DNA of 32,000 nucleotides. It comes from Cognatilysobacter bugurensis. GTDB taxonomy: Bacteria; Pseudomonadota; Gammaproteobacteria; Xanthomonadales; Xanthomonadaceae. Shown one piece after another: positions 1,227 to 25,318 of this stretch (positions are counted from its first letter, which is position 1; each line of letters opens with the position of its first letter). The translations under genes were made by a program, and so were the position numbers. The stretch lies in contig NZ_BMYD01000001.1 in the NCBI RefSeq assembly GCF_014652095.1, positions 268,633-300,632 on the forward strand, read 5' to 3'. The notes under the pieces are model-generated. The model searched no databases, had not been told where the DNA came from, and was given only the letters and a program-made list of their open reading frames with translations.

Positions 1227-4199
1227 GTGCAGAAGGCGGTCTTTACGACGCGGCCGGCGGGGGACCATGGCGTATGCGCACTGGTGTCGCTCGCAGCGTC
1301 GCTGCGGCACACGCTGCCGCGCAGCGCGGAAGTCGCGGTGTGCTGGCGCAATCCGGACGGTACGTCGGGATGCTCGCTGAGCGACGGGGCGGCCGGGCTG
1401 GCGCCACTCGCCGAGAAGATCCTGTTTTCCGACGACCCACTGCCCCGCGCGGCCCAGCTGCTGATCGATGCGTGGGACGAGCAGGACGGCACGCGCGCGG
1501 TGGTCGTCGCCTCGATGCCGGATCCGATGATTCCCGCCGCAAGCACGGCATGGGCGGGGCTGACGCGCCGCGTGGTGTGGGCGAGCCTCGTGGCAGCGCG
1601 CGCGCAGGCGCACGTCGAGCTGCTCCGCAAATCCGAGCGGCTGCAGCAGGCGCTGTACGAGATCGCCGACCTCGCGGGCGCCGACCTTGAGTTCAGCGTG
1701 ATGCTCGGCCGGGTGCACGCAGTCGTCGCGCGGCTGATGTTCGCTGAGAACTTCTACATCGTCGCCTACGACGACGAGCGTGAGCGGATGCGGTTCCTGT
1801 ACTTCGCCGACCAGCGCGACCCGTACGTGGCCGATCCCGAGCGCGAGATCGGCGCCGAGGATCTTCCGCACAGCCTCACGCTTGCATTGTTGCGACACGG
1901 CGCGCCGCTTCGCGGGTCGATCGACGCGATCCGCCAGCAGACCGGCCTGCTGCTCGAAGACAGCGACCCGCGCGCGGATGCCGCCGCCGCCGCCGGCCCG
2001 GAGAGCCTCGACTGGCTCGGCGTTCCGATCGTGCGCGACGACCATGTGTGCGGTGCGGTCGTCGTGCAGAGCTACGACCGCGCCGACTGCTACAGCGACG
2101 AGGACCGCGCGCTGCTCGCGTTCGTGGCGCAGCACATCCAGACGGCACTCGAGCGGCACTGGGCGCGTGAGGAACTCGAGCGGCGCGTCGACCAGCGCAC
2201 CGAAGCGCTGTGGAAGAGCAATCGCGACCTGCAGGCCGAAATCATCGAGCGCCAGCGCGCCGAGCGCCTGCAGCGAGCGCTGTTCCGGATTGCGGAACTG
2301 TCGATCACCGCCGACACGCTCGAGCGTTTCTACGCGCAGGTGCATGACGTCGTCGGCGAACTTCTGTACGCGCGCAACTTCTACATCGCGCTGCTGTCGG
2401 CCGACGGCACGATGCTCGAGTTCCCGTACTCGATCGACGAGCGCGACATGAAGCGCGTTGCGCGCAAGCGGGCCAGTGGCTTGACCGAGTACGTCATCGC
2501 CACCGGGCGCGCGCTTCTCGTCGACCGCTCGCGCATCCTCGATCTCGAAGCCGACGGCGTGGTGCGCAGCGTCGGTGCGCTCTCGCACTGCTGGCTTGGC
2601 GTGCCGCTGCGTCGCGACGACGCCGTCGTCGGTTGCATCGCCGTGCAGAGCTATTCGCCCGAGACGATCTTCACCGTGCGTGATCAGGAGTTGCTGACGT
2701 TCGTCGCGTACCACATCGGTATCGGCCTGGCACGCAAGCAGACCCAGGACCGGCTCGTGGCGGCGCATGCCGAGCTCGAGCAGCGCGTGGCGGCGCGCAC
2801 CTTCGAACTCGCGCAGTCGAACTCGCGCCTCATCGCGCAGATCGGCGAGCGCGTGAAGGCCGAGAAGCAGCTCACGCACCAGGCGCTTCACGACCCCCTG
2901 ACCCAGCTGCCGAATCGCACGCAGCTGCTGCAGCGGCTCGCGCGCGCGATCGATCGTGCGCGGGAGGGCGAGGGCCACCAGTTCGCCGTGCTGTTCCTCG
3001 ATCTCGATCGCTTCAAGCTCATCAACGACAGTGCGGGCCATGCGGCCGGCGACAAGCTGCTCGTAGAAGTCAGCCGGCGCATCGTCGACACCGTGCGTGC
3101 GGAGGACACCGTCGCACGCCTGGGCGGCGACGAGTTCGCCGTGGTCATCGAAGACATCGAAAGCGGCCAGGTCGCGGAAGACCTGGCCGGGCGCATGCTC
3201 GGCGCGCTGGGCACACCGTGCTGGGTGGCCGGTCGCGAGCTGTTCCCGTCGGCGAGCATCGGCATCGCGTTGTGGCACCCGCGCTACAACGACGGCGCCG
3301 AGATGCTGCGCGACGCGGACGCGGCGATGTATCGCGCGAAGGCCGCCGGTCGCAGCGACTGGGCGGTGTTCGACGAGGCAATGCGCGAGGACGCGATGCG
3401 CATCCTCGACCTCGAGGCCGACCTGCGCCGCGCGATCAACGGCAGCGGGTTCGTGGCGTTCTACCAACCAATCGTGCGCCTGTCCGACGGTCAGGTCATC
3501 GGCCACGAGGCACTGCTGCGCTGGCGACACGAGCGCCGCGGCCTGCTGATGCCGGGCGAGTTCATCGGCCTGGGCGAAGACACCGGGCTCATCGAGGAGG
3601 TCGACTGGCTGGTCTACGAACAGGTGGCGCACCGTTTGGCGCGCACCGAAGATGGCTACATCTCGGTCAACGTCTCACCGCGGCATTTCCGCAGCGAGGA
3701 GTTCGCCGATCGCCTGCTCGACCTGCTCGCCTACGCCGGCGCCGACCCGCGACGGCTGCGCATCGAGATCACGGAAGTCGCGCTGCTCGACGACGCGCCG
3801 CGCGCGCTGCGCATGCTGGAGCAGCTGCGCGATGTCGGCGTGCTCGCGCAGCTCGACGACTTCGGCACAGGCTATTCCGCGCTGTCGTACCTGCACCGTT
3901 TCCCGATCGAGTGCCTGAAGATCGACCGCAGCTTCGTGGCCGGGCTGGTCGGCGAGTCGTGCGCAGAGAGCATCGCCGTCGTGCGTGCGATCCAGGCGCT
4001 CGCGAACGCGCTCGGCATCCACACGGTGGGCGAGGGCATCGAGACGGAGGCGCAGCGCGAGATCCTCGAGGGGCTGGGCTGCAGCCACGGACAGGGATTC
4101 CTGTTCGGGCATTCGAGCGAGCATCCGGGGCCGAGGGTCGATGTGCTCGACGCGCCGCGTCCGGAGCTTGTGCACCCCGTGGCCGCTGTCGCGCAGTAG
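1227..4199 (+). CDS. GAF-GAF-GGDEF-EAL signalling protein (diguanylate cyclase/phosphodiesterase)
   Basis: ORF of 990 aa. There are two GAF-like blocks (MFAENFYIVAYDDERERMRFLYF..., LYARNFYIALLSADGTMLEFPY...). The GGDEF motif is intact (RLGGDEFAV), with an RxxD I-site (RAED) 5 residues upstream. EAL-domain motifs are EALLRW, DDFGTGYSALSYL, EGIETE and QGFLFG. The GTG start at 1227 is uncertain. Confidence 0.9.
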   Translation: MQKAVFTTRPAGDHGVCALVSLAASLRHTLPRSAEVAVCWRNPDGTSGCSLSDGAAGLAPLAEKILFSDDPLPRAAQLLIDAWDEQDGTRAVVVASMPDPMIPAASTAWAGLTRRVVWASLVAARAQAHVELLRKSERLQQALYEIADLAGADLEFSVMLGRVHAVVARLMFAENFYIVAYDDERERMRFLYFADQRDPYVADPEREIGAEDLPHSLTLALLRHGAPLRGSIDAIRQQTGLLLEDSDPRADAAAAAGPESLDWLGVPIVRDDHVCGAVVVQSYDRADCYSDEDRALLAFVAQHIQTALERHWAREELERRVDQRTEALWKSNRDLQAEIIERQRAERLQRALFRIAELSITADTLERFYAQVHDVVGELLYARNFYIALLSADGTMLEFPYSIDERDMKRVARKRASGLTEYVIATGRALLVDRSRILDLEADGVVRSVGALSHCWLGVPLRRDDAVVGCIAVQSYSPETIFTVRDQELLTFVAYHIGIGLARKQTQDRLVAAHAELEQRVAARTFELAQSNSRLIAQIGERVKAEKQLTHQALHDPLTQLPNRTQLLQRLARAIDRAREGEGHQFAVLFLDLDRFKLINDSAGHAAGDKLLVEVSRRIVDTVRAEDTVARLGGDEFAVVIEDIESGQVAEDLAGRMLGALGTPCWVAGRELFPSASIGIALWHPRYNDGAEMLRDADAAMYRAKAAGRSDWAVFDEAMREDAMRILDLEADLRRAINGSGFVAFYQPIVRLSDGQVIGHEALLRWRHERRGLLMPGEFIGLGEDTGLIEEVDWLVYEQVAHRLARTEDGYISVNVSPRHFRSEEFADRLLDLLAYAGADPRRLRIEITEVALLDDAPRALRMLEQLRDVGVLAQLDDFGTGYSALSYLHRFPIECLKIDRSFVAGLVGESCAESIAVVRAIQALANALGIHTVGEGIETEAQREILEGLGCSHGQGFLFGHSSEHPGPRVDVLDAPRPELVHPVAAVAQ

Positions 4200-9252: not shown

Positions 9253-10158
9253 CTACTCGCCGGGCTTCGCGGCGGCGCTTGGGGCCGCGGTCGCGGCTCG
9301 CCGTGCCAGCTGCGCTTCGCGGTGCGCGATGTACGCATTCGCGCCGAAGATGATGGCCGCGCCCGCGACGGTCCATCGGTCGACCGCCTCGTCGAACAGC
9401 AGGTAGCCGAGCACGGCGACGATCGGCAGCTGCATGAAGCTGATCGGCGTGAGCGCCGAGACGTCGCCGAGCTTGAGCGCTCGGGTCCAGAGCATGTGGC
9501 CGAGCGTGCCCAGCGTGCCCGCGGCCGCGACCCACAGCCACGTGATGCCCTGCGGCCATTCCCACACGAACAGCGCCGGGCCAAGTGACATCGGCACCCA
9601 CAGCATCGTCGTCCACAGCACGATGCGGTCGGCCGGCTCGGTGGCGGACAGCTGCTTGATCTGGATCGACACGAGCCCGCTGAGCACCGCGGCGGTCAGC
9701 GCGACGAGCGTGCCCGCCGTGAAGCTGTCGGTGCCGGGGCGGACGATCACCATCACGCCGATAAACCCGACGACGACCGCCGCCCAGCGCCGCGCCCGCA
9801 CCTGCTCGTGCAGGATCCACACCGCCGCAATCGTGACGAACAGCGGGGTCGAGTACGACAACGAGACGGCCTGCGCGAGCGGCAGATTCCCGATGGCCCA
9901 GAACCCGCAGAACATCGACACGATGCCGACGAGGCAGCGCACGAAATACTTCGACAGTCGGTCGGTTTTCAGCAGCCCCGGGCCGTGGTGGACCAACAAC
10001 GGCAGCGCGGCGATCACGCCGAAGAAGTTGCGGAAGAACGCGATCTCGAACGTGTGCAGCGTTTCCGCCGCCAGCTTGATCGCGACCGCCATGAGCGCGA
10101 AGAACGCGGTGCTGCACAGCATGAGCCACACGGCGCGACCGTGCGTCGTCAGCGGCAT
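9253..10158 (-). CDS. DMT-superfamily (EamA-like) transporter
   Basis: ORF of 301 aa with about 10 hydrophobic helices and an EamA-like N-terminus (AVWLMLCSTAFFALMAVAIKLAAETLHTFEIAFFRNFFG). ATG is the complement of 10156-10158. Confidence 0.8.
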   Translation of the reverse strand: MPLTTHGRAVWLMLCSTAFFALMAVAIKLAAETLHTFEIAFFRNFFGVIAALPLLVHHGPGLLKTDRLSKYFVRCLVGIVSMFCGFWAIGNLPLAQAVSLSYSTPLFVTIAAVWILHEQVRARRWAAVVVGFIGVMVIVRPGTDSFTAGTLVALTAAVLSGLVSIQIKQLSATEPADRIVLWTTMLWVPMSLGPALFVWEWPQGITWLWVAAAGTLGTLGHMLWTRALKLGDVSALTPISFMQLPIVAVLGYLLFDEAVDRWTVAGAAIIFGANAYIAHREAQLARRAATAAPSAAAKPGE

Positions 10159-10281
10159 CGGGGCGTCTCCAGCGGGCGCGTCGGGGCGTGCAGGATAGGC
10201 GCAGTCGCGTGCAGGACGTTTTGCCGCTGTGGGCAGGCGACGCGGGCCGGGCGCGGGACCGCGTGGCCGGTCACGCCTGAA

Positions 10282-11322
10282 TCACCATGCGGCCCCGATG
10301 ACGCGCGGCTCGGGCTCCAGCCTCACGCCGAAGCGGGCGTGCACGCTGTCGGCAATGCGACGGGCGAGGTCGAGCAAGTCGCGCCCGCTCGCGCTGCCGT
10401 AGTTGACGAGCACCAGCGCATGCGAAGGCGCGACGCCGGCATCGCCGTCGCGTTGGCCTTTCCAGCCGGCGCGGTCGATGAGCCAAGCCGCGGAGAGCTT
10501 GCGCAGCTCGGGCGACCCGGCGCGGAACACCGGCAGCGTCGGGTGCTCGGCGAGCAGCGCCTCAGCCTGCTCGACCGGCACGATCGGATTCTTGAAGAAG
10601 CTGCCCGCATTGCCGAGCACAGCGGGGTCGGGCAGCTTGCTGCGTCGGATGTCGATGACGGCATCCGCGACGTCGCGTGCCGTCGGCGACTCGATGCCGC
10701 GCGTGGCCAGCGCTTCGCGCAGCCCCGCGTAATCGAGCGTCAGCGACGGTGTGCGCAATAGGTCGAACTCGACCGCGGTCACGACGAAGCGGTCCGGCGC
10801 GTGCTTGAACACGCTGTCGCGGTACCCGAATGCGCAGGCATCGCGGTCGAGCCGATGCATCGTGCCCGTTCCAGGCTCGAACGCCTCGACCGCATGGATG
10901 AGTTCGCCGACCTCCACGCCGTACGCGCCGATGTTCTGGATCGGCGCGGCGCCGGTCGTGCCCGGAATCAGCGCAAGGTTCTCCAGCCCGGCGAAGCCAC
11001 GGCCCAGCGTGTCCATCACGAGAGCGTGCCACTCCACGCCCGCGTCGGCGCGCACGATCGCGCGCTCGCCGTCGTCGCTGACGATCGAGACGCCGCGGCC
11101 GGTCAACGCGAGCACCGGACCCGGCGCGTCGCCTGCGAACAGCAGATTGCTCCCGCCGCCGAGCACGAGCGGCCGCGCGCCTTGTAACTGAGGAAGTGCG
11201 AACACCTCGGGCAAGCGCGCCGCATCGGCGACCTCGACAAGCCACGGCGCCCGCGCGGCAACGCCGAACGTGTTGCGCCCGGTGAGGTCGGCGTCGCGCG
11301 TGAGACTTACGGCGTCGGTCAT
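10282..11322 (-). CDS. murB: UDP-N-acetylenolpyruvoylglucosamine reductase
   Basis: Inner ATG (complement of 11320-11322) of ORF 10282..11385. Motifs: [52 protein letters not shown] and [14 protein letters not shown]. The start overlaps the pyrD stop (ATGA). Confidence 0.92.
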
Positions 11323-12386
11323 TGCTCGGGCGGGACGTTGCCGCGGCTCGGGGCTTCCTTGCGCCGCCGCATCGCCTCGACACACTCGTCAATCAGCGCA
11401 GGCCCGCGGTACACGAGGCCGGAGTAGCACTGCACGAGGCTCGCCCCGGCGGCCATCTTCGTCACCGCGTCGGCCCCGGACAGGATGCCGCCGACGCCGA
11501 TCAACGGGATCGTCTCGGGCAGGCGGGTGCGCATCATGCGCAGCACGGTCGTTGCCTGCGCCATCACCGGTCGGCCGGACAAGCCGCCGGCCTCGTCGGC
11601 CACGGGCAGGTGTTCGACGTCCGGCCGGCCTATCGTCGTGTTCGTCGCGATGACGCCGTCGACCTGGAGGTCGCTGAGCACCCGCGCGGCGGCCTCGATA
11701 TCGCTGTCGCTCAGATCAGGCGCGATCTTCACCAGCATCGGAACGCGCTTGCCATGCCGCGCGCCAAGACGCTCCTGCGCCTCGCGCAGCGCGCCGACCA
11801 GCCGACGCAGCGCCTGTTCTTCCTGCAGCTCGCGCAGGCCCGCGGTGTTCGGCGAAGAGATATTGACCGTCACGTAGTCCGCGAGCGGGTACACGCGCTC
11901 CAGGCAATGCAAGTAGTCGGCTTCAGCCAGTTCGTTCGGTGTGTCTTTGTTCTTGCCGATGTTGATGCCGAGCACGCCGCGGCGCGTGCGCATGCGTTCG
12001 ACGTTGTGCGCGAGCGCGTCGACGCCGTCGTTGTTGAACCCGAGCCGGTTGATGATCGCGCTGTGCTCCGCGATGCGAAACATGCGCGGCTTCGGGTTGC
12101 CCGCCTGCGGCCGGGGCGTGACCGTGCCCACCTCGACGAAGCCGAAGCCGAGCGCGAACAGGGCTTCGGCGTGCAGCGCGTTCTTGTCGAGCCCGGCAGC
12201 GAGGCCGACCGGGTTCGGGAACGTGAGCCCGAACACGCGCGTCGGGAACGGCTTTGGCGGGCGCGGCAGCAGCAGTCTGCCGCTGATCGCGTGCAGCGTG
12301 TCGAGCGCGCGCAGCGTCAGGCCGTGCGCGGTTTCGGCATCCAGACGGAACAGCAGCGGGCGGGCGAGGGCGTAGGCGGGGCGCAT
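11319..12386 (-). CDS. pyrD: dihydroorotate dehydrogenase (quinone), class 2
   Basis: Inner ATG (complement of 12384-12386) of ORF 11319..12425. Motifs: [68 protein letters not shown] and GVGGI. Confidence 0.93.
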
Positions 12387-14388: not shown

Positions 14389-14465
14389 TGGCGGCCCCGA
14401 CACGATTCGAACGTGCGACCTGTCCCTTAGGAGGGGACCGCTCTATCCAGCTGAGCTACGGGGCC
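14389..14465 (-). tRNA. tRNA-Arg (anticodon CCT), 77 nt with encoded CCA
   Basis: Hand-folded cloverleaf: GGCCCCG-UA-GCUC-AGCUGGAUA-GAGC-G-GUCCC-CUCCUAA-GGGAC-AGGUC-GCACG-UUCGAAU-CGUGU-CGGGGCC-G-CCA. The acceptor, D, anticodon and T stems all pair. Confidence 0.92.
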
Positions 14466-16974: not shown

Positions 16975-18603
16975 GTGCACATGACGAGGCAGAAGAACGC
17001 CGTTGAACGGCGTATCGACGTGCTGTGCGAGCAATGGCTGCGCGCAACTGAGGCACCGGATGTGCGAGCGGTGATCTGGCGCGTGCCCGATAACGCCGAT
17101 CGCATGATGGCGGCATTCTTCGAGGCGCAGGCGCACCCCGAACTGGCGGGCACGCCCGACTTCTTCCTGCGGCTGTCGACGCCGTTCGAGACCGGGTTCG
17201 GGTACAGCCGGGCGCTGAAGGAAGATCTGCGGCGTCGCTATCTGGACAGCCGCGACAACATGGCAGAGGAGGGCGTCGCGCAGGACTGGCTCGATGCCTA
17301 CCGCCAACAGCCGGACACCGCGGCGGGCACGCTGGCGCAGTGGGCCTCGTTTGCGACGCACCACCGGGAGCGGATGCGCTACTTCGCGGCGGTGCTCTCG
17401 CCCGAACAGGTCGCATCGCCGGCGGCGTTCGAGCGCTGGCTGGACGCGGCACTCGCGACGCCCGCCCCGGCCAATGTCCGCCTCGTCCTCGTCGACTACG
17501 CGTCCACACGGCAGTGGCAGCCGTTGGTTGAGCGCCACGGATCGTCGGTGACCGTCATCGACGCGCCCGTGGACATGTTCGACATCGCGCGCGACATCGC
17601 CGCTCAATCCGGTGGGGCAGGCCCGCAGACGGCATTCCGGCAGATGCTCGCCGATGTCATGACGCTGCTCGACAAGGGCAGTGCATCCCAGGTGGTCGCA
17701 CGCGGCGAGCGGGCTATCGCGCTTGCACAGCGCGCTGATTGGCCCGATCAGCAGGTCGTGGTGCACATGGCAGTCGCCGGTGCGTACATGAAGGAGCAGC
17801 AGTTTCCCGAGGCGATTGCCCGCTACCGCACCGCCCGCGAGCGGGCACTCGACGCCGAGCGCGCATCCCACCCGGCCGGGCTCCAGCTCGTCATGCAAAC
17901 GTGGTTCGGCGAAGCCGGCGTGTGGCTCGTGGCCGGTCAGCCGGAACGAGCGGCGGCGGCATATGCCGAAGGCGCGGAGGTGGCCCGGCGCATGCCGAAC
18001 GCGATGTTCGTGATCGAAGGCCTGCGCATGGCCGGCTTCTGTCTCGCGCAAGCCGGGCGTCGCGAACCGGCGCGGGATTACGGGCTGCAAGCGCTTGCAG
18101 CAGCGCGCGATGTGCCTGCGTCGGACCGTCCAATGACCACACTGCCGCTTCTACTGCAGGATCTGTTACGCCTGCAGGACGCGCCGCGCACCGAAAAGAT
18201 CGAGCGCGCCGCGGAGCAGTATCGCGTGGCCGTTGAATCGGCGCGCGACGCCGCGGAGATGCGCGCTGCCCGACTCGGCGCCGATCCAACGTGCCTGGAG
18301 CTGGAGCGCATCGAAGCGGAGCTGCAAGGGCGGTACGAGACGGCATTCGCCAATGCCGCCCGCGAGCGCGAGCGGCAGATCGCGGGTGGCGACGCGTTCT
18401 TCCGCCGCGTGGTCGCCGTGGGCCGCGACTTTCTGCATCCGAGATGGAGCGGCCTGCCCGACATTCGGCATCCGCTCGACAAGGCGATTGTGGAGTGGAG
18501 CGAGCCTCCGCAGTTCGCGGTGCTGCCCGACCCGGAGCCGCTGTTTACGCCTGAGTCGGCGACCGTGGCGCGCGCACCCGCTGCCGAGGAAACCGTTGCA
18601 TGA
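16975..18603 (+). CDS. hypothetical protein, alpha-helical/TPR-like repeats; candidate T6SS adaptor or cargo (family not recognised)
   Basis: ORF of 542 aa starting 2 nt (GTG) or 8 nt (ATG 16981) after the vgrG stop. No signal peptide or TM helix. The central region looks like helical hairpin repeats (AIALAQRADWPDQQVVVHMAVAGAYMKEQQFPEAIARYRTARERAL...AAAAYAEGAEVARRM...). I did not recognise catalytic motifs or the known adaptor families. Confidence 0.6.
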   Translation: MHMTRQKNAVERRIDVLCEQWLRATEAPDVRAVIWRVPDNADRMMAAFFEAQAHPELAGTPDFFLRLSTPFETGFGYSRALKEDLRRRYLDSRDNMAEEGVAQDWLDAYRQQPDTAAGTLAQWASFATHHRERMRYFAAVLSPEQVASPAAFERWLDAALATPAPANVRLVLVDYASTRQWQPLVERHGSSVTVIDAPVDMFDIARDIAAQSGGAGPQTAFRQMLADVMTLLDKGSASQVVARGERAIALAQRADWPDQQVVVHMAVAGAYMKEQQFPEAIARYRTARERALDAERASHPAGLQLVMQTWFGEAGVWLVAGQPERAAAAYAEGAEVARRMPNAMFVIEGLRMAGFCLAQAGRREPARDYGLQALAAARDVPASDRPMTTLPLLLQDLLRLQDAPRTEKIERAAEQYRVAVESARDAAEMRAARLGADPTCLELERIEAELQGRYETAFANAARERERQIAGGDAFFRRVVAVGRDFLHPRWSGLPDIRHPLDKAIVEWSEPPQFAVLPDPEPLFTPESATVARAPAAEETVA

Positions 18604-18760: not shown

Positions 18761-21700
18761 GTGACCCTCGCCGCCAAGCATTTCGACCCGCAACTCGGGA
18801 TCGACATCCATCAGTACCTCGCTCCGCCCGCGCCGCTGCCGACGCCGCATATCGGCATGGTGCTGGACCCGTTCGACTATCTGCCGATCATCGGCGGCAC
18901 CGTGCACGTCAGTGGAGTGAAGCGCGCGACGGCCGGTACGGGCGGACTGTGCATCCACATCCCGCTCGGCGCGTGGGTACCGCCCATGAAGGCACCGATG
19001 GGCCCGCAGTTCGAGGACGAGTTGTTCATGGGCAGCCGCACCGTGCTTGCCGATGGCGAGCCGTTTTCGCGCCTCGGCATGCCGGTGCTCGATTGCAACC
19101 TCGTGGGCATGATCCCGCCCGTGCGGCCGAAGAGCCCGCCGAAGCCAAAGATGTCGCTGACGCTGCCGACCGCGATCAACGTGGCGATCCCGACCACCGT
19201 GAACGTCGGTGGCCCCCCGACGATCTCAATGACCGCCATGGCGTTCAAGGGCGCGTTCTGGCTGCTCAAGAAGAGCGGTGTCGCACGGCGTGCGGCCGAC
19301 GCGTTCGCGAACATGCGCCGTCGGGCGTGCAAGAACATGAACCCGGGGCTCCTCAAGTGCAAGGTGTTGCGCGCTGAGCCGGTCGATATCCGCGACGGCA
19401 GCGTCGTCGTGACGCACGAGGATTTCTCCATCCCCGGGCGCCTGCCGCTTGCATGGACGCGGCACTACCGCTCCTCCGAAACGTATGCCGGTGCGTCCGG
19501 CCATGGCTGGCAGACGCCCGCCGACATCCGGCTGGTCATCGAGCCGGACGGTGCGGTGCTGTTCGTGGATGTGCAGAGCACGGCGGTGTTCCCACATCTG
19601 CCGGCAGGGGAGGGCACTGAACACGCGGTGCTCGAGTTCGTCGACGGTGCCCGTCTCATGCGCGAGGCCGATGCCTGCGGCGTGCGGTACGTCGTCCGGA
19701 CGAAGGACGGCCTGCGGTACGTCTTCGTCCCGCCCTCGAACGGCCCGTCGAGCATGCCGATCGAACGCATCGAGGACCTGTGCGGCAACCACTGGCAGTT
19801 CGAACGGGTCGACGGGCACCTCGTGCGTATTGTCGAGAGTGGCATCATCGACGAGGAAACCGGCCAACCGTTGCAGGGGCGCTTTCTCGAAATCGATTCA
19901 CGGCAGGGCCGCGTCGAGCGCATCGCGCTGCACGACCCCGGCACGGGCCTGAACTATCCGCTCGTTCGCTATCGATACGATGCGGCGGGCGACCTCATCG
20001 CCGCGCACGATGCACTGGACGCGCCAAGGACGTTCGAATATCGCGAGCACCGGATGGTGCGGCATACCGACCGTCTGGGTCTGTCGTTCCACTATGCGTT
20101 TGACGACCAATGGCGCGTCATTCGCAGCTGGGGCGACGGTGGGCTCTACCGTTATACGTTCGAGTACGACGCGCTGCTGCGCGAGACGCAGGTCACCGAC
20201 TCGCTCGGCCACACGTCGCTGGTGAAGTTCGACGAGAACGGGCTGCCGCTGTGCGAGATCGACCCGCTCGACGGTGTGGCCGTGTTCGAGTACGACGACG
20301 TCGGCCGCACGACCGCTGTGGTCGATCCGATGGGGTTGCGGACCGCGTTCGACTATGACGAGCGCGGGAATCTGCTGAAGCTGACGCGGGCGGACGGAAG
20401 CGTACTGGAAACGTCGTATGACGCCGGCGACCGGCCTGTCGATGTCATAGATCCGGGCGGCGCGATATGGTCGCAACGATGGGACGACCGTGGACTGCTG
20501 CTCGAGCAGAGCACGCCGCTCGGTGCGATATCGCGCTTCGGCTACAACGCTTACGGCCAGTTGCGTACGCACGCGGATCCACTCGGCGCTGTGACGCGGC
20601 TGCAGTTCGACCGCCATGGCCAATTGCAGCAAGTTGTCGATCCGTTGGCTGTCACAAGTCACTACCAGCACGATGCGCTTGGAAGTCTGCAGGCACAGAC
20701 CGGTCCCGCGGGGCAGGTGACACGTTACCGGCATGACGGCAAAGGCCGCCTGCTGGAAATGATCCAGCCGGATGGTGGCCGTATCCACTGCGAATACGAT
20801 GCCGAGGACCAGTTGCTGAGGCATCGTGATGAGGCAGGCCATGTCACGAGGCTCGAGTACGTGGGCATCGGCCAGATTGCGCGGCGCCTGCAGGCCGACG
20901 GCCACAGTGTGTGCTACGAGTACGACACCGAAGAGCAACTGACGGCCGTCATCAACCAGCGTGGCGAGCGCTACGAACTCAGGCGCGATGCGCTGGGCCG
21001 CATCATCGAGGAGGTCGACTACTGGGGGCAGGCCCGCCTCTATCGGTACGATGCGTGCGGGCGGCTCCTCGCGACCGAGGATGCGCTCGGCCATACGGTT
21101 AGCTATACCACCGACAAACTCGGCCGCGTCTTGGGCAAAGCGCTTCCAGATCCGGACCGGACGGGCCATCTCGTCCAGGAAACCTTCCGATACGACGACG
21201 GAGGGCGCCTGGTCGAGCTCCGCAATCCGCACCGCCATGTCACGTGCCGGTTCGACCCGGAGGGCCGCCTCGTCGAGGAGGTGCAGGACGGTTTCCGCAT
21301 CACGAGCCGGTTCGATGCACTCGGTCGGCGCGTCGCTCGCGAGACCAGCGCCGGCAATCGCGTGCTGCATACGTTCGATGCTCGTGGCCAGGTCGGCACC
21401 GTGCGGATTAACAACGATGTGCCGATCGTGATCGAGCGCGACCTTCTCGGGCGAGCGGTCAACGAGAAGCTGGGTGAGCATCTGCAGCGCAGGCTGCACT
21501 ACGACGGACGGGGCCTGATGACCGTGCAATCCGTTCTGCGCGACGAGTTGCCGCTGTTCGAAACCTCGTACGGCTATGACGGCAGTGGCAACCTGACGGA
21601 GCGCAGGGACAGCGAACACGGCAGCGATTGCTACACGCATGACCCGCTGGGACGGGTCATGAGCCACGCCGACCCGACGGGCCGCATCGCGCATTTTCTC

Positions 21701-23437
21701 AACGATGCAGCTGGCGACCGCCTCCAGACGCGCGTGCGGCCGGCGCGGATGAAGCGCGTCTCCGGTGGTGATGCCATGCCCGACCTGTGGACGCGAGAGG
21801 GTGTCCACGAGGGGGTCCGCTACGTCTTCGATCGCACCGGCACGCTGGTGCTCCGTAGCACCGATCAAACATGTGCCGGCCTGGCGGACCGGTCGGAGGA
21901 GCTGCACCTCCGCTGGGACGCCAGCCAGCGCCTAGTCGAAAGCCGGAAGGGCACGGAAATCACCCGGTACGGATACGACGCGGTGGGCCGTCGGGTATTC
22001 AAGCGCAACGCGACGCACACCACGTGGTTCTTCTGGGACGGCGACACCCTCGCCGCTGAAGTCGTGCAGGATGACGCGTCGCGCGCGCCGTGCGCCGCGA
22101 CGGGCAGCAACGTCCTCGAGTTGACCGAGTTCCAAGAGAAGAAGCGGCGCACTGCGGCGCTTCACGCACGTGCCCGTGAGTACGTGTATCACCCCGGTAC
22201 GTTCGTACCGCTGGCGCTGATCGAGCGGCAGCCGATCGACTCTGCCCTACATGTTCGACCACGGTCGGCCTGCGAGGTGACTGCCCGCTCGGACGTGGAC
22301 AACACATCCGAGCCGTCGGCGCCTGCCGCGCGCGCCCTGTCGCGCAACCGGTTTCGTCCTGATCCAGGCGATCCGACCGGGGTATTGCTGGCAAGCCTGT
22401 CGGAAGATCCAGGATGGGCCGTTCTCGGCCACACCGCCGGCCTATCCGGGGCGATGCGCAGCAGAGGCCTCGGGTCACTGTCACTGGGCGGCGCCCCGGC
22501 TGACCGCCCGGGCGCGGGAGCGCTGGGCCGAACGGCGCTGCTGGGCGGAATCGTGCGCGAGCCGGCGCCTGCACGCCCCGCCAGGCCTTCGGAGACGGAC
22601 CAGTCGCGAGTAAGGAAGCGGCCGGCGGACCCAGCTCGAATTCCACCCGAAGATTCCGGCGCGGCGGAGGTGTACTACTACCACGTCGATCCGAACGGAT
22701 GCCCCACCCGCCTGACCGACCCGCAGGGAAACGTCGTCTGGTCGGCGAGCTACACGGCGTGGGGGGCAACGACTCGGCAGTCCGGCAGCATCCAGAACCA
22801 CCTGCGGTTGCAAGGACAATATCTGGATATGGAGACCGGGCTCCACTACAACCGGTTCCGCTATTACGACGTCCGCACGGGCGCCTACATCTCGCAGGAT
22901 CCGGTAGGGATCGCTGCCGGCCCGAACATTTACGAGTATGGCCCGAACACCGGCATGTTCGTCGATCCGTTGGGTCTGAGCCGCTACCGGCGCGTCACCG
23001 CCAGCGACGGCCGCACCGTATATCAGCGCGACGACCTATTCGATCCGCAACGCAAGAGTGCCTGGAAGGACCCCGTCACCGGGCAATGGAAGCGCGGTTC
23101 GAACCTAGATCGCATGGGTGACGGGCTCGCGCCGATCGGCACGGATGGGAAATCGGTACAGCTGCACCACCTGACGCAGACCGAGATCAACACATTCACC
23201 GGGCAGCGCGGTTCACTGGTCGAGATACTGACCGACACGCATCAGAATCATTCCAGGATCCTCCACTATCCGTTCCCGCGTGATCCCAACCGTCCGAAGC
23301 AGACGCTGCCCCGCTACCCGAGTTTCCGTAAGAATGCTGACGGAACGGCATCCGCACTCGACAAGCAGTTCAACGACTTCAGAACCGCTTACTGGAAACG
23401 GCGCGCGGCCGATCTCCTTTCCGGCTGCAGGTCATAG
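18761..23437 (+). CDS. rhs: PAAR-like Rhs-family T6SS toxin with C-terminal HNH/EndoVII-like nuclease domain (1558 aa)
   Basis: In-frame GTG at 18761 with AAGGA 5 nt upstream. The track ORF starts at 18233, but that part overlaps the upstream genes. The N-terminal PAAR-like region reads KHFDPQLGIDIH...MGSRTVLADGEPFSRLGMPVLDC. A plug-like motif follows (AEPVDIRDGSVVVTHEDFSIPGRLPLAWTRHYRS). There are many YD/RHS repeats (YRYDAAGDL, FEYDALLRE, FEYDDVGR, FDYDERGN...). The core end reads YYYHVDPNGCPTRLTDPQGNVVWSASYTAWG...QGQYLDMETGLHYNRFRYYDVRTGAYISQDPVGI...PNTGMFVDPLGL. Confidence 0.93.
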   Translation: MTLAAKHFDPQLGIDIHQYLAPPAPLPTPHIGMVLDPFDYLPIIGGTVHVSGVKRATAGTGGLCIHIPLGAWVPPMKAPMGPQFEDELFMGSRTVLADGEPFSRLGMPVLDCNLVGMIPPVRPKSPPKPKMSLTLPTAINVAIPTTVNVGGPPTISMTAMAFKGAFWLLKKSGVARRAADAFANMRRRACKNMNPGLLKCKVLRAEPVDIRDGSVVVTHEDFSIPGRLPLAWTRHYRSSETYAGASGHGWQTPADIRLVIEPDGAVLFVDVQSTAVFPHLPAGEGTEHAVLEFVDGARLMREADACGVRYVVRTKDGLRYVFVPPSNGPSSMPIERIEDLCGNHWQFERVDGHLVRIVESGIIDEETGQPLQGRFLEIDSRQGRVERIALHDPGTGLNYPLVRYRYDAAGDLIAAHDALDAPRTFEYREHRMVRHTDRLGLSFHYAFDDQWRVIRSWGDGGLYRYTFEYDALLRETQVTDSLGHTSLVKFDENGLPLCEIDPLDGVAVFEYDDVGRTTAVVDPMGLRTAFDYDERGNLLKLTRADGSVLETSYDAGDRPVDVIDPGGAIWSQRWDDRGLLLEQSTPLGAISRFGYNAYGQLRTHADPLGAVTRLQFDRHGQLQQVVDPLAVTSHYQHDALGSLQAQTGPAGQVTRYRHDGKGRLLEMIQPDGGRIHCEYDAEDQLLRHRDEAGHVTRLEYVGIGQIARRLQADGHSVCYEYDTEEQLTAVINQRGERYELRRDALGRIIEEVDYWGQARLYRYDACGRLLATEDALGHTVSYTTDKLGRVLGKALPDPDRTGHLVQETFRYDDGGRLVELRNPHRHVTCRFDPEGRLVEEVQDGFRITSRFDALGRRVARETSAGNRVLHTFDARGQVGTVRINNDVPIVIERDLLGRAVNEKLGEHLQRRLHYDGRGLMTVQSVLRDELPLFETSYGYDGSGNLTERRDSEHGSDCYTHDPLGRVMSHADPTGRIAHFLNDAAGDRLQTRVRPARMKRVSGGDAMPDLWTREGVHEGVRYVFDRTGTLVLRSTDQTCAGLADRSEELHLRWDASQRLVESRKGTEITRYGYDAVGRRVFKRNATHTTWFFWDGDTLAAEVVQDDASRAPCAATGSNVLELTEFQEKKRRTAALHARAREYVYHPGTFVPLALIERQPIDSALHVRPRSACEVTARSDVDNTSEPSAPAARALSRNRFRPDPGDPTGVLLASLSEDPGWAVLGHTAGLSGAMRSRGLGSLSLGGAPADRPGAGALGRTALLGGIVREPAPARPARPSETDQSRVRKRPADPARIPPEDSGAAEVYYYHVDPNGCPTRLTDPQGNVVWSASYTAWGATTRQSGSIQNHLRLQGQYLDMETGLHYNRFRYYDVRTGAYISQDPVGIAAGPNIYEYGPNTGMFVDPLGLSRYRRVTASDGRTVYQRDDLFDPQRKSAWKDPVTGQWKRGSNLDRMGDGLAPIGTDGKSVQLHHLTQTEINTFTGQRGSLVEILTDTHQNHSRILHYPFPRDPNRPKQTLPRYPSFRKNADGTASALDKQFNDFRTAYWKRRAADLLSGCRS
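22979..23434 (+). other. Rhs C-terminal polymorphic toxin domain (152 aa after DPLGL)
   Basis: Sequence: SRYRRVTASDGRTVYQRDDLFDP...IGTDGKSVQLHHLTQTEINTFTGQRGSLVEILTDTHQNHSRILHYPF... The G-x4-LHH-x2-Q...G-x-L-x-E-I...H-x2-H pattern fits treble-clef HNH/EndoVII toxins (LHH/GH-E-type signatures). The subfamily is not certain. Confidence 0.55.
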
Positions 23438-23445
23438 GACCCCAT

Positions 23446-23895
23446 ATGTACGAGCAACTTCAGGAAAAAATCTCCAGCACCGATGTGATCCGCTGGCACC
23501 CGGGGCAGGAGGTCGAGGACGAGTGGATTGCCGACGCCGAGCAGGAACTCGGGGTTCGGCTGCCGCCGTCATACAAGTGGTGGTTGAAAACGTTCGGCAG
23601 TGGCGCCGTAGGCGGCTCGGAGATTCTGACGCTGGCGCCGCCCGAATTCCGTGACGACGCCGACGCCGATCTCGTGTACATCCATCGCCTGAACAGGGCG
23701 AACCCCAACTGGCCGGAGGGCCGCATCTTCATCCTCCAAACCAGTCCGGAAGAGGTGTTTTACTTCGATCTAGGCGACGTATCGGCCAACGGTGAATACG
23801 CGGTATTTCGCGAGGATGTGTTCGGAGCCAAGCCGGAACGCTACGCCGATTCCTTCTCGCAGTTTCTCGAGCGCCTGATCGACGAGTACGCCTAG
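23446..23895 (+). CDS. SMI1/KNR4 (SUKH-1) family immunity protein
   Basis: ORF of 149 aa starting 8 nt after the rhs stop. SUKH-like signature: AEQELGVRLPPSYKWWLKTFGSG...EILTL...VFYFDL...SFSQFLERLIDE. G+C is lower than in the flanking genes. Confidence 0.8.
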   Translation: MYEQLQEKISSTDVIRWHPGQEVEDEWIADAEQELGVRLPPSYKWWLKTFGSGAVGGSEILTLAPPEFRDDADADLVYIHRLNRANPNWPEGRIFILQTSPEEVFYFDLGDVSANGEYAVFREDVFGAKPERYADSFSQFLERLIDEYA

Positions 23896-23914
23896 GGCGG
23901 GGCAGCCGGATCCG

Positions 23915-25318
23915 TCAGACCAACCCCGTCGCATAGAACACCGCGATCACCACGAACACTGCGGCGGTCTTGATCAGCGTGATCGCGAAGATGTCCTTGT
24001 AAGCCTGGCGGTGGGTAAGACCGGTCACCGCCAGCAGGGTGATCACCGCGCCGTTGTGCGGAAGCGTGTCCATGCCGCCGGACGCCATCGAGGCGACGCG
24101 GTGCAACACTTCCATGGGGATGCCGGCCGCCTGCGCGTTCGCGATGAAGCTCTCGGCCATCGCCGCGAGTGCGATGCTCATGCCGCCCGAGGCCGAGCCG
24201 GTGATGCCGGCCAGCGCGGTCACGGTGACCGCCTCGTTGACCAGCGGGTTCGGGATCGAACCGAGCGCGTTCGCGACGACGAGGAAGCCGGGCAGCGCGG
24301 CGATGACAGCGCCAAAGCCGTACTCGCTCGCAGTGTTCATCGACGCGAGCAGCGCACCGCCGATCGCGGTCTTCGTGCCGTCGGCAAAGCTCGAGAACAC
24401 CTGCTTCCACGCGAACAGCAGCACGGTCGCGATGCCGACGAGCAACGCGCCCTCAACGGCCCAGATCGCAGCGACCTTGGTGACGTCCTGCACCACCGGC
24501 GTCGCGGTGCCCATCACCGCCGGCATGAACTCGTGGCTCGTGCCGTACACGCGTGGGATCAGCGCGGTGAACAGCTTGTTCGACACGCCGACCATTACCA
24601 GCGGCAGGATCGCGACCAGTGGATTTGCGAGCGCGCCGCCTGCATACGGCGCGGGCTCGTTGAGGAGGGTGGCCGGGTCGCCGTAGCCCTCGCCGCGTGC
24701 AGCCGCGGTGCGCCGACGCCATTCGAGGTAGGCGAGGCCGACGATCGCGATGAAGATCGCGCCGATCGTGCCGAGCACCGGCGCGGCCCATGACGTGGTG
24801 CCGAAGAACGCGGTCGGGATGATGTTCTGGATCTGCGGCGTGCCCGGCAGCGCGTCCATCGTGAACGTGAATGCGCCGAGCGCGATCGTGCCCGGAATCA
24901 GGCGCTTGGGGATGTCACTCTGGCGGAACAGCTCGGCCGCGAACGGATAGACCGCGAACACGACGACGAATAGCGATACACCGCCGTAGGTCAGCAGTGC
25001 GCAGACCGCGACGATGGAAAGCATCGCGCGGCCCGCGCCGAACAGGCGGATCGTCGCGGCCACGATCGCCTTCGAGAATCCCGAGATCTCGATGAGCTTG
25101 CCGAAGATCGCGCCGAGCAGGAACACCGGGAAATACAGCTTCAGGAAGCCGACCATCTTGTCCATGAACAAGCCGGTGAACATCGGCGCGACGAGCGACG
25201 GGTCGGTCAGCAGCACGGCGCCGAGCGCGGCGACCGGCGCGAACAGGATCACGCTGTAGCCGCGGTACGCGACGAACATCAGAAACAGCAGCGCGGCCAG
25301 CACGATCAGAAAGGACAT
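23915..25318 (-). CDS. GntP-family (gluconate/organic-acid:H+) permease
   Basis: Inner ATG (complement of 25316-25318, GGGAG RBS) of ORF 23915..25858; 467 aa and polytopic. GntP-like segments are LLGAIFGKLIEISGFSKAIV, ALPGTPQIQNIIP and GGMDTLPHNGAVITLLAVTGLTH. Confidence 0.75.
   Translation of the reverse strand: MSFLIVLAALLFLMFVAYRGYSVILFAPVAALGAVLLTDPSLVAPMFTGLFMDKMVGFLKLYFPVFLLGAIFGKLIEISGFSKAIVAATIRLFGAGRAMLSIVAVCALLTYGGVSLFVVVFAVYPFAAELFRQSDIPKRLIPGTIALGAFTFTMDALPGTPQIQNIIPTAFFGTTSWAAPVLGTIGAIFIAIVGLAYLEWRRRTAAARGEGYGDPATLLNEPAPYAGGALANPLVAILPLVMVGVSNKLFTALIPRVYGTSHEFMPAVMGTATPVVQDVTKVAAIWAVEGALLVGIATVLLFAWKQVFSSFADGTKTAIGGALLASMNTASEYGFGAVIAALPGFLVVANALGSIPNPLVNEAVTVTALAGITGSASGGMSIALAAMAESFIANAQAAGIPMEVLHRVASMASGGMDTLPHNGAVITLLAVTGLTHRQAYKDIFAITLIKTAAVFVVIAVFYATGLV

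Follow-up and report, generated by a model that had tools for sequence, protein, structure and literature searches.

The locus

A 32,000-nucleotide (nt) stretch of the Cognatilysobacter bugurensis genome (contig NZ_BMYD01000001.1, positions 268,633 to 300,632 of the forward strand), hereafter called the window, carries a type VI secretion system (T6SS) locus whose features are listed in Table 1. The subject of this report is the protein encoded between the vgrG and rhs genes of the window, for which we use the shorthand X, and its relationship to the adjacent Rhs protein. A second shorthand, RhsN, denotes the PAAR-like N-terminus of the class of Rhs proteins represented in the window, which comprises ~210 amino acids (aa) including a linker.

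The open reading frame (ORF) for X is uninterrupted on the forward strand and runs to position 18603, starting from either a GTG at 16975 or an ATG at 16981. Initiation at the ATG yields a 540-aa product that matches, with 100% identity from end to end, a hypothetical protein recorded by NCBI for Cognatilysobacter (Lysobacter) bugurensis (P0001). Because of this identity, the ATG is most likely the start of X. A preliminary description of the window, made from the letters alone, had reported a 542-aa ORF; the ORF is real, but the shorter length is favored by the NCBI product. The same description had placed X 2-8 nt behind vgrG, and both distances were recovered (the vgrG stop at 16972 is 2 nt from the GTG and 8 nt from the ATG). 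Domain scans and ORF reading likewise agreed with the neighbors it had named, which are vgrG upstream and a 42-aa ORF and a PAAR-like Rhs downstream.

Table 1. Features of the vgrG-X-rhs locus (window coordinates unless a locus handle is given; L numbers denote loci of the comparative set)
Feature	Position	Strand	Evidence
tRNA-Arg(CCT)	14389..14465	-	ARAGORN; 237 nt upstream of vgrG
vgrG, 756 aa	14702..16972	+	Pfam Phage_GPD 1.2e-87, Gp5_trimer_C, Phage_base_V; NCBIfam TIGR03361 2.7e-171
X, 540 aa, 60 kDa, pI 5.4	16981..18603	+	ORF; NCBI identity; AlphaFold2 model
X residues 1-212, predicted alpha/beta domain, P-loop-NTPase (AAA+/STAND)-like fold	16981..17616	+	AlphaFold2, Foldseek
X residues 213-400, predicted TPR-like solenoid, ~9 helices	17617..18180	+	DSSP of model, Foldseek
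X residues 401-540, predicted hairpin, tail and disordered end	18181..18600	+	Model, invariant columns
42-aa small membrane protein, single transmembrane segment	18600..18728	+	ORF, position conserved in orthologs
Orthologs of the 42-aa gene (examples)	L001:11629-11757; L011:11620-11748		
Rhs gene, whole	GTG 18761..23437	+	Pfam/NCBIfam
Rhs residues 1-145, PAAR-like domain	18761..19195	+	Alignment A2; invariant H7, H17, H30, H66, C112
Rhs residues 146-205, moderately hydrophobic helix ISMTAMAFKGAFWLL and strongly basic linker, pI 11.7	19196..19375	+	Hydropathy, pI, conserved in A2
Rhs remainder: DUF6531, YD-repeat cage, RHS core, C-terminal toxin	19376..23437	+	DUF6531 7.9e-19, RHS_repeat 7.3e-63, RHS 1.7e-13, TIGR03696
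LHH (HNH/EndoVII) nuclease, Rhs C-terminus	~23102-23410	+	Pfam LHH 1.2e-15
SUKH/SMI1-KNR4 immunity protein, 149 aa	23446..23895	+	Pfam SUKH_6 1.7e-18, SMI1_KNR4 1.2e-16

Family membership and distribution of X

Searches of Pfam and NCBIfam with X gave no significant match (the best, TPR_12, reached E 0.016 and 15.8 bits against a cut-off of 30.1), and none was obtained with the PADLOC models. The literature names four classes of adaptor: DUF4123, DUF1795, DUF2169, and DUF2875. The PF13503 model of DUF4123 found nothing in X at E<=1 and nothing at E<=0.1 in 58 aligned sequences, which are those of X itself and of 57 relatives, and the models for DUF1795, DUF2169 (PF09937), and DUF2875 matched neither X nor those relatives. 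When the 58 aligned members were scanned singly against Pfam, TPR models alone were returned, at sub-threshold scores (E<=0.1; TPR_12 in 26 of 58 and TPR_2 in 23). The profile of the family produced only coiled-coil noise (E>=0.13) when compared with PDB sequences, and a match of X to LcrH/SycD (E 0.36) was also discarded as noise. As judged by these scans, the X family is uncatalogued and lies outside the known adaptor families, in agreement with the preliminary description, which could see no hallmarks of Eag, Tap, or DUF2169 proteins.

A word-indexed search collected 107 homologs of 505-550 aa at E<=1e-68, from Lysobacter, Xanthomonas (translucens, oryzae pv. oryzicola, maliensis), Stenotrophomonas, Collimonas, Luteimonas, Caldimonas, Roseateles, and others. 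An exhaustive profile search extended the family to 1187 representative clusters (50% identity) at E<=1e-3, with 446 of these at E<=1e-30. Given these homologs and clusters, the ORF has not arisen by chance from the high G+C content, which is ~69% in the window. At least five phyla are represented (Pseudomonadota, Myxococcota, Planctomycetota, Bacteroidota, and Nitrospirota). The family also includes a large short-form subfamily of ~430 aa that covers profile positions 2-400 only, without the C-terminal hairpin and tail of the long forms, and whose members give sub-threshold matches to the Pfam model TPR_MalT.

Some individual loci deserve separate mention. A Stenotrophomonas contig from a metagenome-assembled genome (MAG) carries two complete vgrG-X-Rhs modules in tandem (L038, with X at 1695-3302 and 10001-11605), and its two X copies are divergent, with 39% and 48% identity to X of the window. 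In a MAG of S. maltophilia (L037:10001-11626), a premature stop at 11188 interrupts X and the remainder lies in another frame, which represents either a pseudogene or an assembly error. A contig labeled Bacillus subtilis SK7B5 (JAHREJ010000013.1, locus L021) carries a Stenotrophomonas-type vgrG-X-peptide-Rhs module with a 41-aa peptide identical to the product of S. rhizophila gene 310 (see below), and is almost certainly a contaminant or mislabeled.

Pairing of X with one class of Rhs

The proteins of the window were mapped onto a first set of 53 X genes in 52 genomic loci, and 12 loci were added beyond this set, four of them reached from the Rhs side. An Rhs of the RhsN type is located directly downstream from X in all 52 cases of the first set that are uncut by a contig end, and the same partner is present in 12 of the 12 extra loci. 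In a reverse search with the RhsN profile, an X-like sequence was found directly upstream in four of four loci, which include a Bacteroidota MAG (with a 328-aa X and TssD nearby), Cystobacter fuscus, and a degraded Rhs array with a remnant of X.

The stop codon of X overlaps or abuts the Rhs start in 17 loci of beta-proteobacteria and other non-Xanthomonadales (by 4 nt in 15 loci and 1-6 nt in the other two), and the gap in Collimonas is 13-22 nt. In some sequences the two proteins are joined. The 1812-aa protein P0199, found in two metagenome samples (L055:6091-11529 and L056:3672-9110), consists of an X domain (residues 17-409 of the fusion protein), a 65-residue low-complexity linker, RhsN from residue 475, and then DUF6531 and RHS repeats. 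In C. fuscus, a single-frame ORF (L061:5803-7158) likewise covers positions 143-397 of X and 2-105 of RhsN, in a locus that is also frameshifted.

The association with VgrG is frequent. By tblastn, the end of a VgrG lies 7-86 nt upstream of 52 of the 53 X genes; at the remaining one (L051), a beta-helix-repeat ORF just upstream resembles, by eye, a divergent VgrG C-terminus. The C-terminal 166 aa of VgrG are conserved alongside X in the first set, with 30-56% identity. In the window, the beta-helix of VgrG can be read through to the C-terminus (...GATINLNC*), with its beta-repeat persisting to the last residue. No DUF2345/TTR or helix-turn-helix extension was found above threshold, the last 166 aa giving a weak DUF2345 match (E 0.0064). 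Short-form loci show the order VgrG, X, Rhs in a Reyranella-like contig (Alphaproteobacteria; X of 433 aa) and in a gammaproteobacterial MAG (431 aa), and an unassigned metagenome contig encodes TssF, TssG, ClpV, VgrG, a short-form X of 443 aa, and Rhs. In the planctomycete Kolteria and in one further contig, X is followed by Rhs without an adjacent vgrG. Because of these last loci, the Rhs N-terminus is regarded as the invariant partner of X and VgrG as a frequent, but not obligatory, third member. The question raised with the preliminary description, whether homologs always accompany both vgrG and this type of Rhs, can thus be answered in the affirmative for Rhs in every untruncated locus examined, but not for vgrG.

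The toxin ends of the partner Rhs proteins vary, and the LHH end of the window recurs in only one of the 52 loci. Furthermore, a second full Rhs of the RhsN type, unaccompanied by a second X, is present a few kilobases downstream in several loci (L001:18517, L014:16744, L030:16521, L031:17041, and L044:17045). Because the toxin end is polymorphic and these additional copies have no X of their own, X appears to recognize the constant N-terminus of Rhs and not the toxin.

The Rhs N-terminus

RhsN of the window has no match in Pfam or NCBIfam, with PF05488, PF13665, and NF033420 among the models tried. An alignment of 17 RhsN sequences (alignment A2) displays motifs that resemble PAAR strands, such as KRATAGT and FMGSxTVxADGxPFS, and opens with AAKH(F/G)DP, which we take to be similar to the prePAAR consensus. 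The RhsN profile finds a PAAR structure (4jiv_D) weakly in the PDB (E 0.095), and relatives of RhsN give matches that are all sub-threshold (PAAR_motif 0.0031, Tox-PAAR-like/DUF4150 0.13, NF033420 6e-4). Several of these relatives have been named PAAR or "Zn-binding protein involved in type VI secretion" by NCBI and JGI. By its motifs and profile matches, RhsN is probably a divergent PAAR-like domain, and it appears to form a separate PAAR-like subfamily that has yet to be catalogued.

The Rhs of the window opens directly with this domain. No transmembrane (TM) segment precedes it, and the sole hydrophobic helix, with a maximum 15-residue hydropathy of 1.35, comes after it. Rhs residues 146-205, which contain this helix and the basic linker, are proposed to provide a second contact for X; the acidic X (pI 5.4) would face this linker, the pI of which is 11.7 (Table 1).

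Predicted structure of X

The AlphaFold2 model of X, built from a 58-sequence alignment, is confident (pLDDT 92.3, pTM 0.86). X had been described beforehand as a soluble, all-helical, TPR-like scaffold. A TPR-like solenoid is indeed predicted by the model, but X is not predicted to be all-helical, because five strands contribute to an alpha/beta domain that spans residues 1-212. This N-terminal domain was also modeled alone (pLDDT 91.8). Following the solenoid, residues 401-484 are predicted to form a long helical hairpin and residues 485-525 an extended, conserved tail with an invariant W489, and the last 15 residues appear disordered. There is no TM segment in X. The residues that are invariant in the alignment are mostly aromatic or structural, and they include no invariant His, Cys, Ser, or Asp set.

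Foldseek comparison of the whole model returned generic TPR proteins (LGN, Rap/NprR, and the kinesin light chain KLC) at E ~1e-4, and MalT (8bob_C) was matched as well. For the N-terminal domain, the top match in the PDB is the nucleotide-binding domain of MalT 8bob_C (E 1e-3, TMq 0.43), and ORC/Cdc6, RFC, NSF, CED-4, and Avs4 are ranked lower. A Walker A motif (GxxxxGK[ST]) is missing after the first beta strand, where X reads WRVPDNADRMM and the family consensus, RLLVWRxPxNAxRML, offers no Gly-Lys. A Walker-B-like sequence (RLVLVD172) is retained.

The predicted architecture of X, an NTPase-like domain followed by TPR-like repeats, recalls MalT-type STAND proteins (PDB 8bob), which also supply the top structural match for the N-terminal domain. 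They differ in that X has neither Walker A nor a LuxR DNA-binding domain. Because all scores are below family thresholds, the relationship is regarded as a fold resemblance or distant descent, and not as membership.

The 42-aa membrane peptide

The start codon of the 42-aa ORF overlaps the stop codon of X (ATGA). Its product has a single TM helix and, toward the C-terminus, a conserved motif (EYRDEVKAFLRALxRAL), and is an ortholog of the product of S. rhizophila gene 310 (WP_258223862.1, annotated unknown). Orthologs that are encoded at the matching position and overlap the X stop were located in 27 loci, all from Xanthomonadales except for one MAG labeled Rhizobacter. Most are 41-43 aa long; the exceptions are two of 50 aa and one of 77 aa, for which a start further upstream was called. 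The dN/dS ratio is 0.68 over the whole ORF, ~1 over the TM half, and 0.40 over the C-terminal half, values that carry moderate support only. In the first locus set, the gene is absent wherever X overlaps Rhs directly, and for this reason the peptide cannot be the immunity protein of a conserved toxic X.

Tap6 of Stenotrophomonas rhizophila

Tap6 of S. rhizophila CFBP13503 (WP_181406191.1) shares 50% identity with X over 380 aa (E 8e-117) and, on the strength of this similarity and its gene context, is an ortholog of X. Its gene belongs to the cluster hns-vgrG6-tap6-310-paar-rhs-tse6-tsi6, which was reported in 2026 by one group (PMC13340143; bioRxiv 10.64898/2026.07.13.738213). The order vgrG6-tap6-310-paar-rhs is the same as in the window, as is the Rhs N-terminus (VSIAAKHFDPQLGIDIH...). 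There, Table 1 of the authors gives Tap6 (59.5 kDa) as a "hypothetical protein" to which no domain is assigned, in contrast to tap7 and Tap3, which bear the DUF4123 mark. The label "Tap6 effector adaptor" was assigned there by position and AlphaFold3 only, and the authors proposed that Tap6 contacts the PAAR domain. An ipTM of 0.82 is given for the AlphaFold3 model of Tap6 with "V6", in a table that is silent on the portion of PAAR-Rhs-Tse6 modeled (PMC13340143 Table S4).

Proteomic data from the same work provide information on where Tap6 resides. Tap6 spectral counts were 13, 13, 12, and 13 in cells, 1, 5, 0, and 1 in wild-type supernatants, and 0, 0, 0, and 0 in those of the delta-hcp strain (PMC13340143 Table S8). 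For VgrG6 the corresponding counts were 37, 24, 29, and 34, then 10, 12, 7, and 14, and finally 4, 8, 3, and 1 (PMC13340143). Tap6 is therefore mainly cellular, with a trace in the supernatant of the wild type only.

Because this ortholog had already been labeled an effector adaptor in 2026, the novelty of X is reduced. The fold, the spread of the family beyond Stenotrophomonas, and the strict pairing with a PAAR-like domain are absent from the Tap6 papers. What is new is the recognition of the family as a distinct group, together with its predicted fold, its wide distribution, and the obligate pairing with a PAAR-like domain that had gone unrecognized; the function of an effector-specific T6SS helper is familiar. 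A literature search for a characterized TPR adaptor of T6SS Rhs effectors found none, and the mentions of TPR that it did return concerned immunity proteins, FAN1, and uncharacterized candidates. Neither TPR nor tetratricopeptide is mentioned in a 2026 review of T6SS accessory factors (PMC13584744).

The surrounding island

The stretch from vgrG to the immunity gene is a 9.2-kb orphan vgrG island, because both flanks consist of housekeeping genes: the tRNA-Arg gene and an aldehyde dehydrogenase gene on one side, and a minus-strand permease-like ORF and a TonB-dependent receptor gene on the other. The island abuts a tRNA gene, that for tRNA-Arg(CCT). Its G+C content falls from ~0.68 to 0.58-0.62 across the LHH toxin end and the SUKH gene (window positions 22800-24000), and this dip matches the expectation for a recently swapped toxin/immunity cassette. 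A scan of the island for promoters and terminators gave nothing above the level of shuffled sequences.

Comparison with known accessory proteins

The closest functional parallel to X is provided by DUF2169/TvpA. This protein stabilizes a DUF4150 (PIPY) PAAR-like tip protein and thereby enables formation of a secretion-competent spike (PMC13373197; PMC13584744). Like X, it is a dedicated accessory encoded beside vgrG for a non-canonical PAAR-like protein. The two differ in fold, which is predicted to be NTPase-like plus TPR in X, and in client, which for X would be another PAAR-like domain that fails the Pfam model Tox-PAAR-like.

Eag proteins (DUF1795) are, as X is, encoded between vgrG and a PAAR-Rhs gene. 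However, they comprise ~150 aa and adopt another fold, compared with the 540 aa of X, and their clients carry prePAAR and TM helices before PAAR, whereas the Rhs of the window has no TM segment in front of its PAAR-like domain. Ahmad and colleagues reportedly found in 2020 that Eag proteins shield hydrophobic N-terminal helices. If so, the hydrophobic helix near the end of RhsN would parallel the helices that Eag proteins shield. In Acidovorax citrulli, EagT2 (DUF1795) is required for secretion of the Rhs protein RhsB and binds the N-terminus of this effector (PMC10989746). The RhsB/VgrG3 system of Acidovorax, with which the S. rhizophila authors drew a comparison, was considered as a user of an X-type helper and rejected, because the helper there is a DUF1795 Eag.

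Tap/Tec proteins (DUF4123) share with X a position after vgrG and a two-part architecture. Tap binds a C-terminal helix-turn-helix of VgrG and is two-lobed, with one part proposed to hold the effector (PMC11582642). By contrast, the VgrG of the window lacks a C-terminal helix-turn-helix, as judged from its residues, and the clients of Tap are cargo effectors without a PAAR domain of their own, whereas the proposed client of X carries a PAAR-like domain.

A proposed role for X

In our view, X is probably a non-secreted protein of the cytoplasm that is dedicated to this Rhs class and serves its PAAR-like N-terminal module as a chaperone or loader. The gene arrangement shows that X and Rhs are produced from one operon and that their translation is often coupled. 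The Rhs N-terminal module would then be bound and stabilized by the acidic NTPase-like domain and the TPR groove of X, and would subsequently cap the blunt beta-helical tip of the cognate VgrG. X would stay behind in the producer cell, as the Tap6 proteomics faintly suggests, and its release would occur on docking. Through the conserved N-terminus, one X can serve several Rhs proteins with swapped toxins, as the varied toxin ends and the extra Rhs copies indicate. The NTPase-like domain, whose P-loop is lost as read from the sequence, would presumably act as a binding platform and not as an enzyme.

Several observations weigh against this model. The X-Rhs fusions imply that X and the effector can travel together, at least in one lineage. 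A low level of Tap6 co-export may also occur, since 7 counts were obtained for the wild type versus 0 for delta-hcp, numbers too few to interpret. The assignment of the N-terminal domain to an NTPase fold depends on weak Foldseek scores (E 1e-3, TM 0.4-0.56), and it is we who infer both the binding surface of X and the segment of Rhs that would be bound. Lastly, a DUF2169 gene (L055:1976-3847) is located directly upstream of vgrG in a locus that encodes the P0199 fusion. X is therefore not simply a replacement for DUF2169, and the two types of accessory can coexist.

The preliminary description had suggested a new adaptor class linking VgrG to Rhs. An accessory of no known family that always lies beside RhsN is indeed what was found, but its invariant partner is not VgrG. 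We consider it unlikely that X is a true bridge in the sense of DUF4123/Tap, with one surface for the VgrG C-terminus, another for Rhs, and a need for both contacts. Such a bridge would suit the presence of vgrG immediately upstream of X throughout the first set (by eye at L051) and in most short-form loci, the parallel conservation of the VgrG C-terminal 166 aa, and the two distinct domains of X, which recall the two lobes of Tap (PMC11582642). However, the Rhs possesses its own PAAR-like domain, and in established PAAR biology a PAAR domain docks on the VgrG tip unbridged. The VgrG of the window also ends in a beta-helix and not in a helix-turn-helix like that to which Tap binds (PMC11582642). 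Because X-Rhs pairs persist in some loci without an adjacent vgrG, the chaperone or loader model fits better than a bridge.

The resemblance to MalT allows a more elaborate scheme, which we judge rather improbable. X could be a P-loop-less descendant of MalT-like STAND proteins that forms an uncatalogued, phylum-spanning class, is obligately paired with an equally uncatalogued PAAR-like class, and acts as a gated loader instead of a passive chaperone. In this scheme, the TPR groove would be filled by the tail of the long forms or by a partner, for which the 42-aa peptide is a possible candidate in Xanthomonadales, and handing the Rhs tip over to VgrG would displace the occupant. If this were true, the loading of effectors would be under regulation, and the spike might even take part of X out with it.

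Less probable again, and in our view doubtful, is a STAND-like regulatory switch whose TPR region senses a signal and gates loading of the Rhs module or some other activity. The Foldseek matches to MalT 8bob_C by both the full model and the N-terminal domain point in this direction, as do the sub-threshold TPR_MalT matches of the short forms and the conserved extended tail of the long forms, which could occupy the TPR groove. On the other hand, the fold similarity is weak, Walker A is missing in all members examined, and X has no effector or DNA-binding domain. Moreover, chaperones typically show just such a strict pairing, gene by gene, with the N-terminus of a single effector.

Finally, it had been suggested beforehand that X is itself a cargo effector loaded on VgrG, with the 42-aa membrane peptide as its immunity protein. 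We consider this very improbable. In its favor, cargo effectors typically occupy the slot that follows vgrG, the small ORF downstream from X is coupled to it translationally, Tap6 peptides occur in wild-type supernatants only, and a 2019 survey of Xanthomonadales counted TPR-repeat proteins in the vicinity of orphan vgrGs among the candidate effectors (PMC6653060). Against it, X is conserved while the neighboring toxins vary, and the peptide gene is essentially limited to Xanthomonadales, being missing elsewhere (the Rhizobacter-labeled MAG excepted), where X overlaps the Rhs start. The same suggestion is also disfavored by the fusion of X to the Rhs N-terminus in two lineages, by the lack of an invariant His, Cys, Ser, or Asp set and of any match to defense or toxin models (Pfam, NCBIfam, PADLOC), and by the near-absence of Tap6 from supernatants, where it is far lower than cytoplasmic proteins of like abundance in cells (PMC13340143).

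Implications

If X is a chaperone or loader as proposed, its family would represent the reuse of an NTPase-TPR scaffold as a secretion helper. DUF4123, DUF1795, DUF2169, and DUF2875 now serve as markers for T6SS effectors, and the X family would be a fifth. With near-perfect specificity, X points to Rhs toxins whose PAAR-like tip escapes Pfam. X and the first ~210 residues of Rhs also make a testable partner pair, for which plant-associated Xanthomonas, Stenotrophomonas, and Lysobacter, genera that are studied for biocontrol, are suitable organisms.

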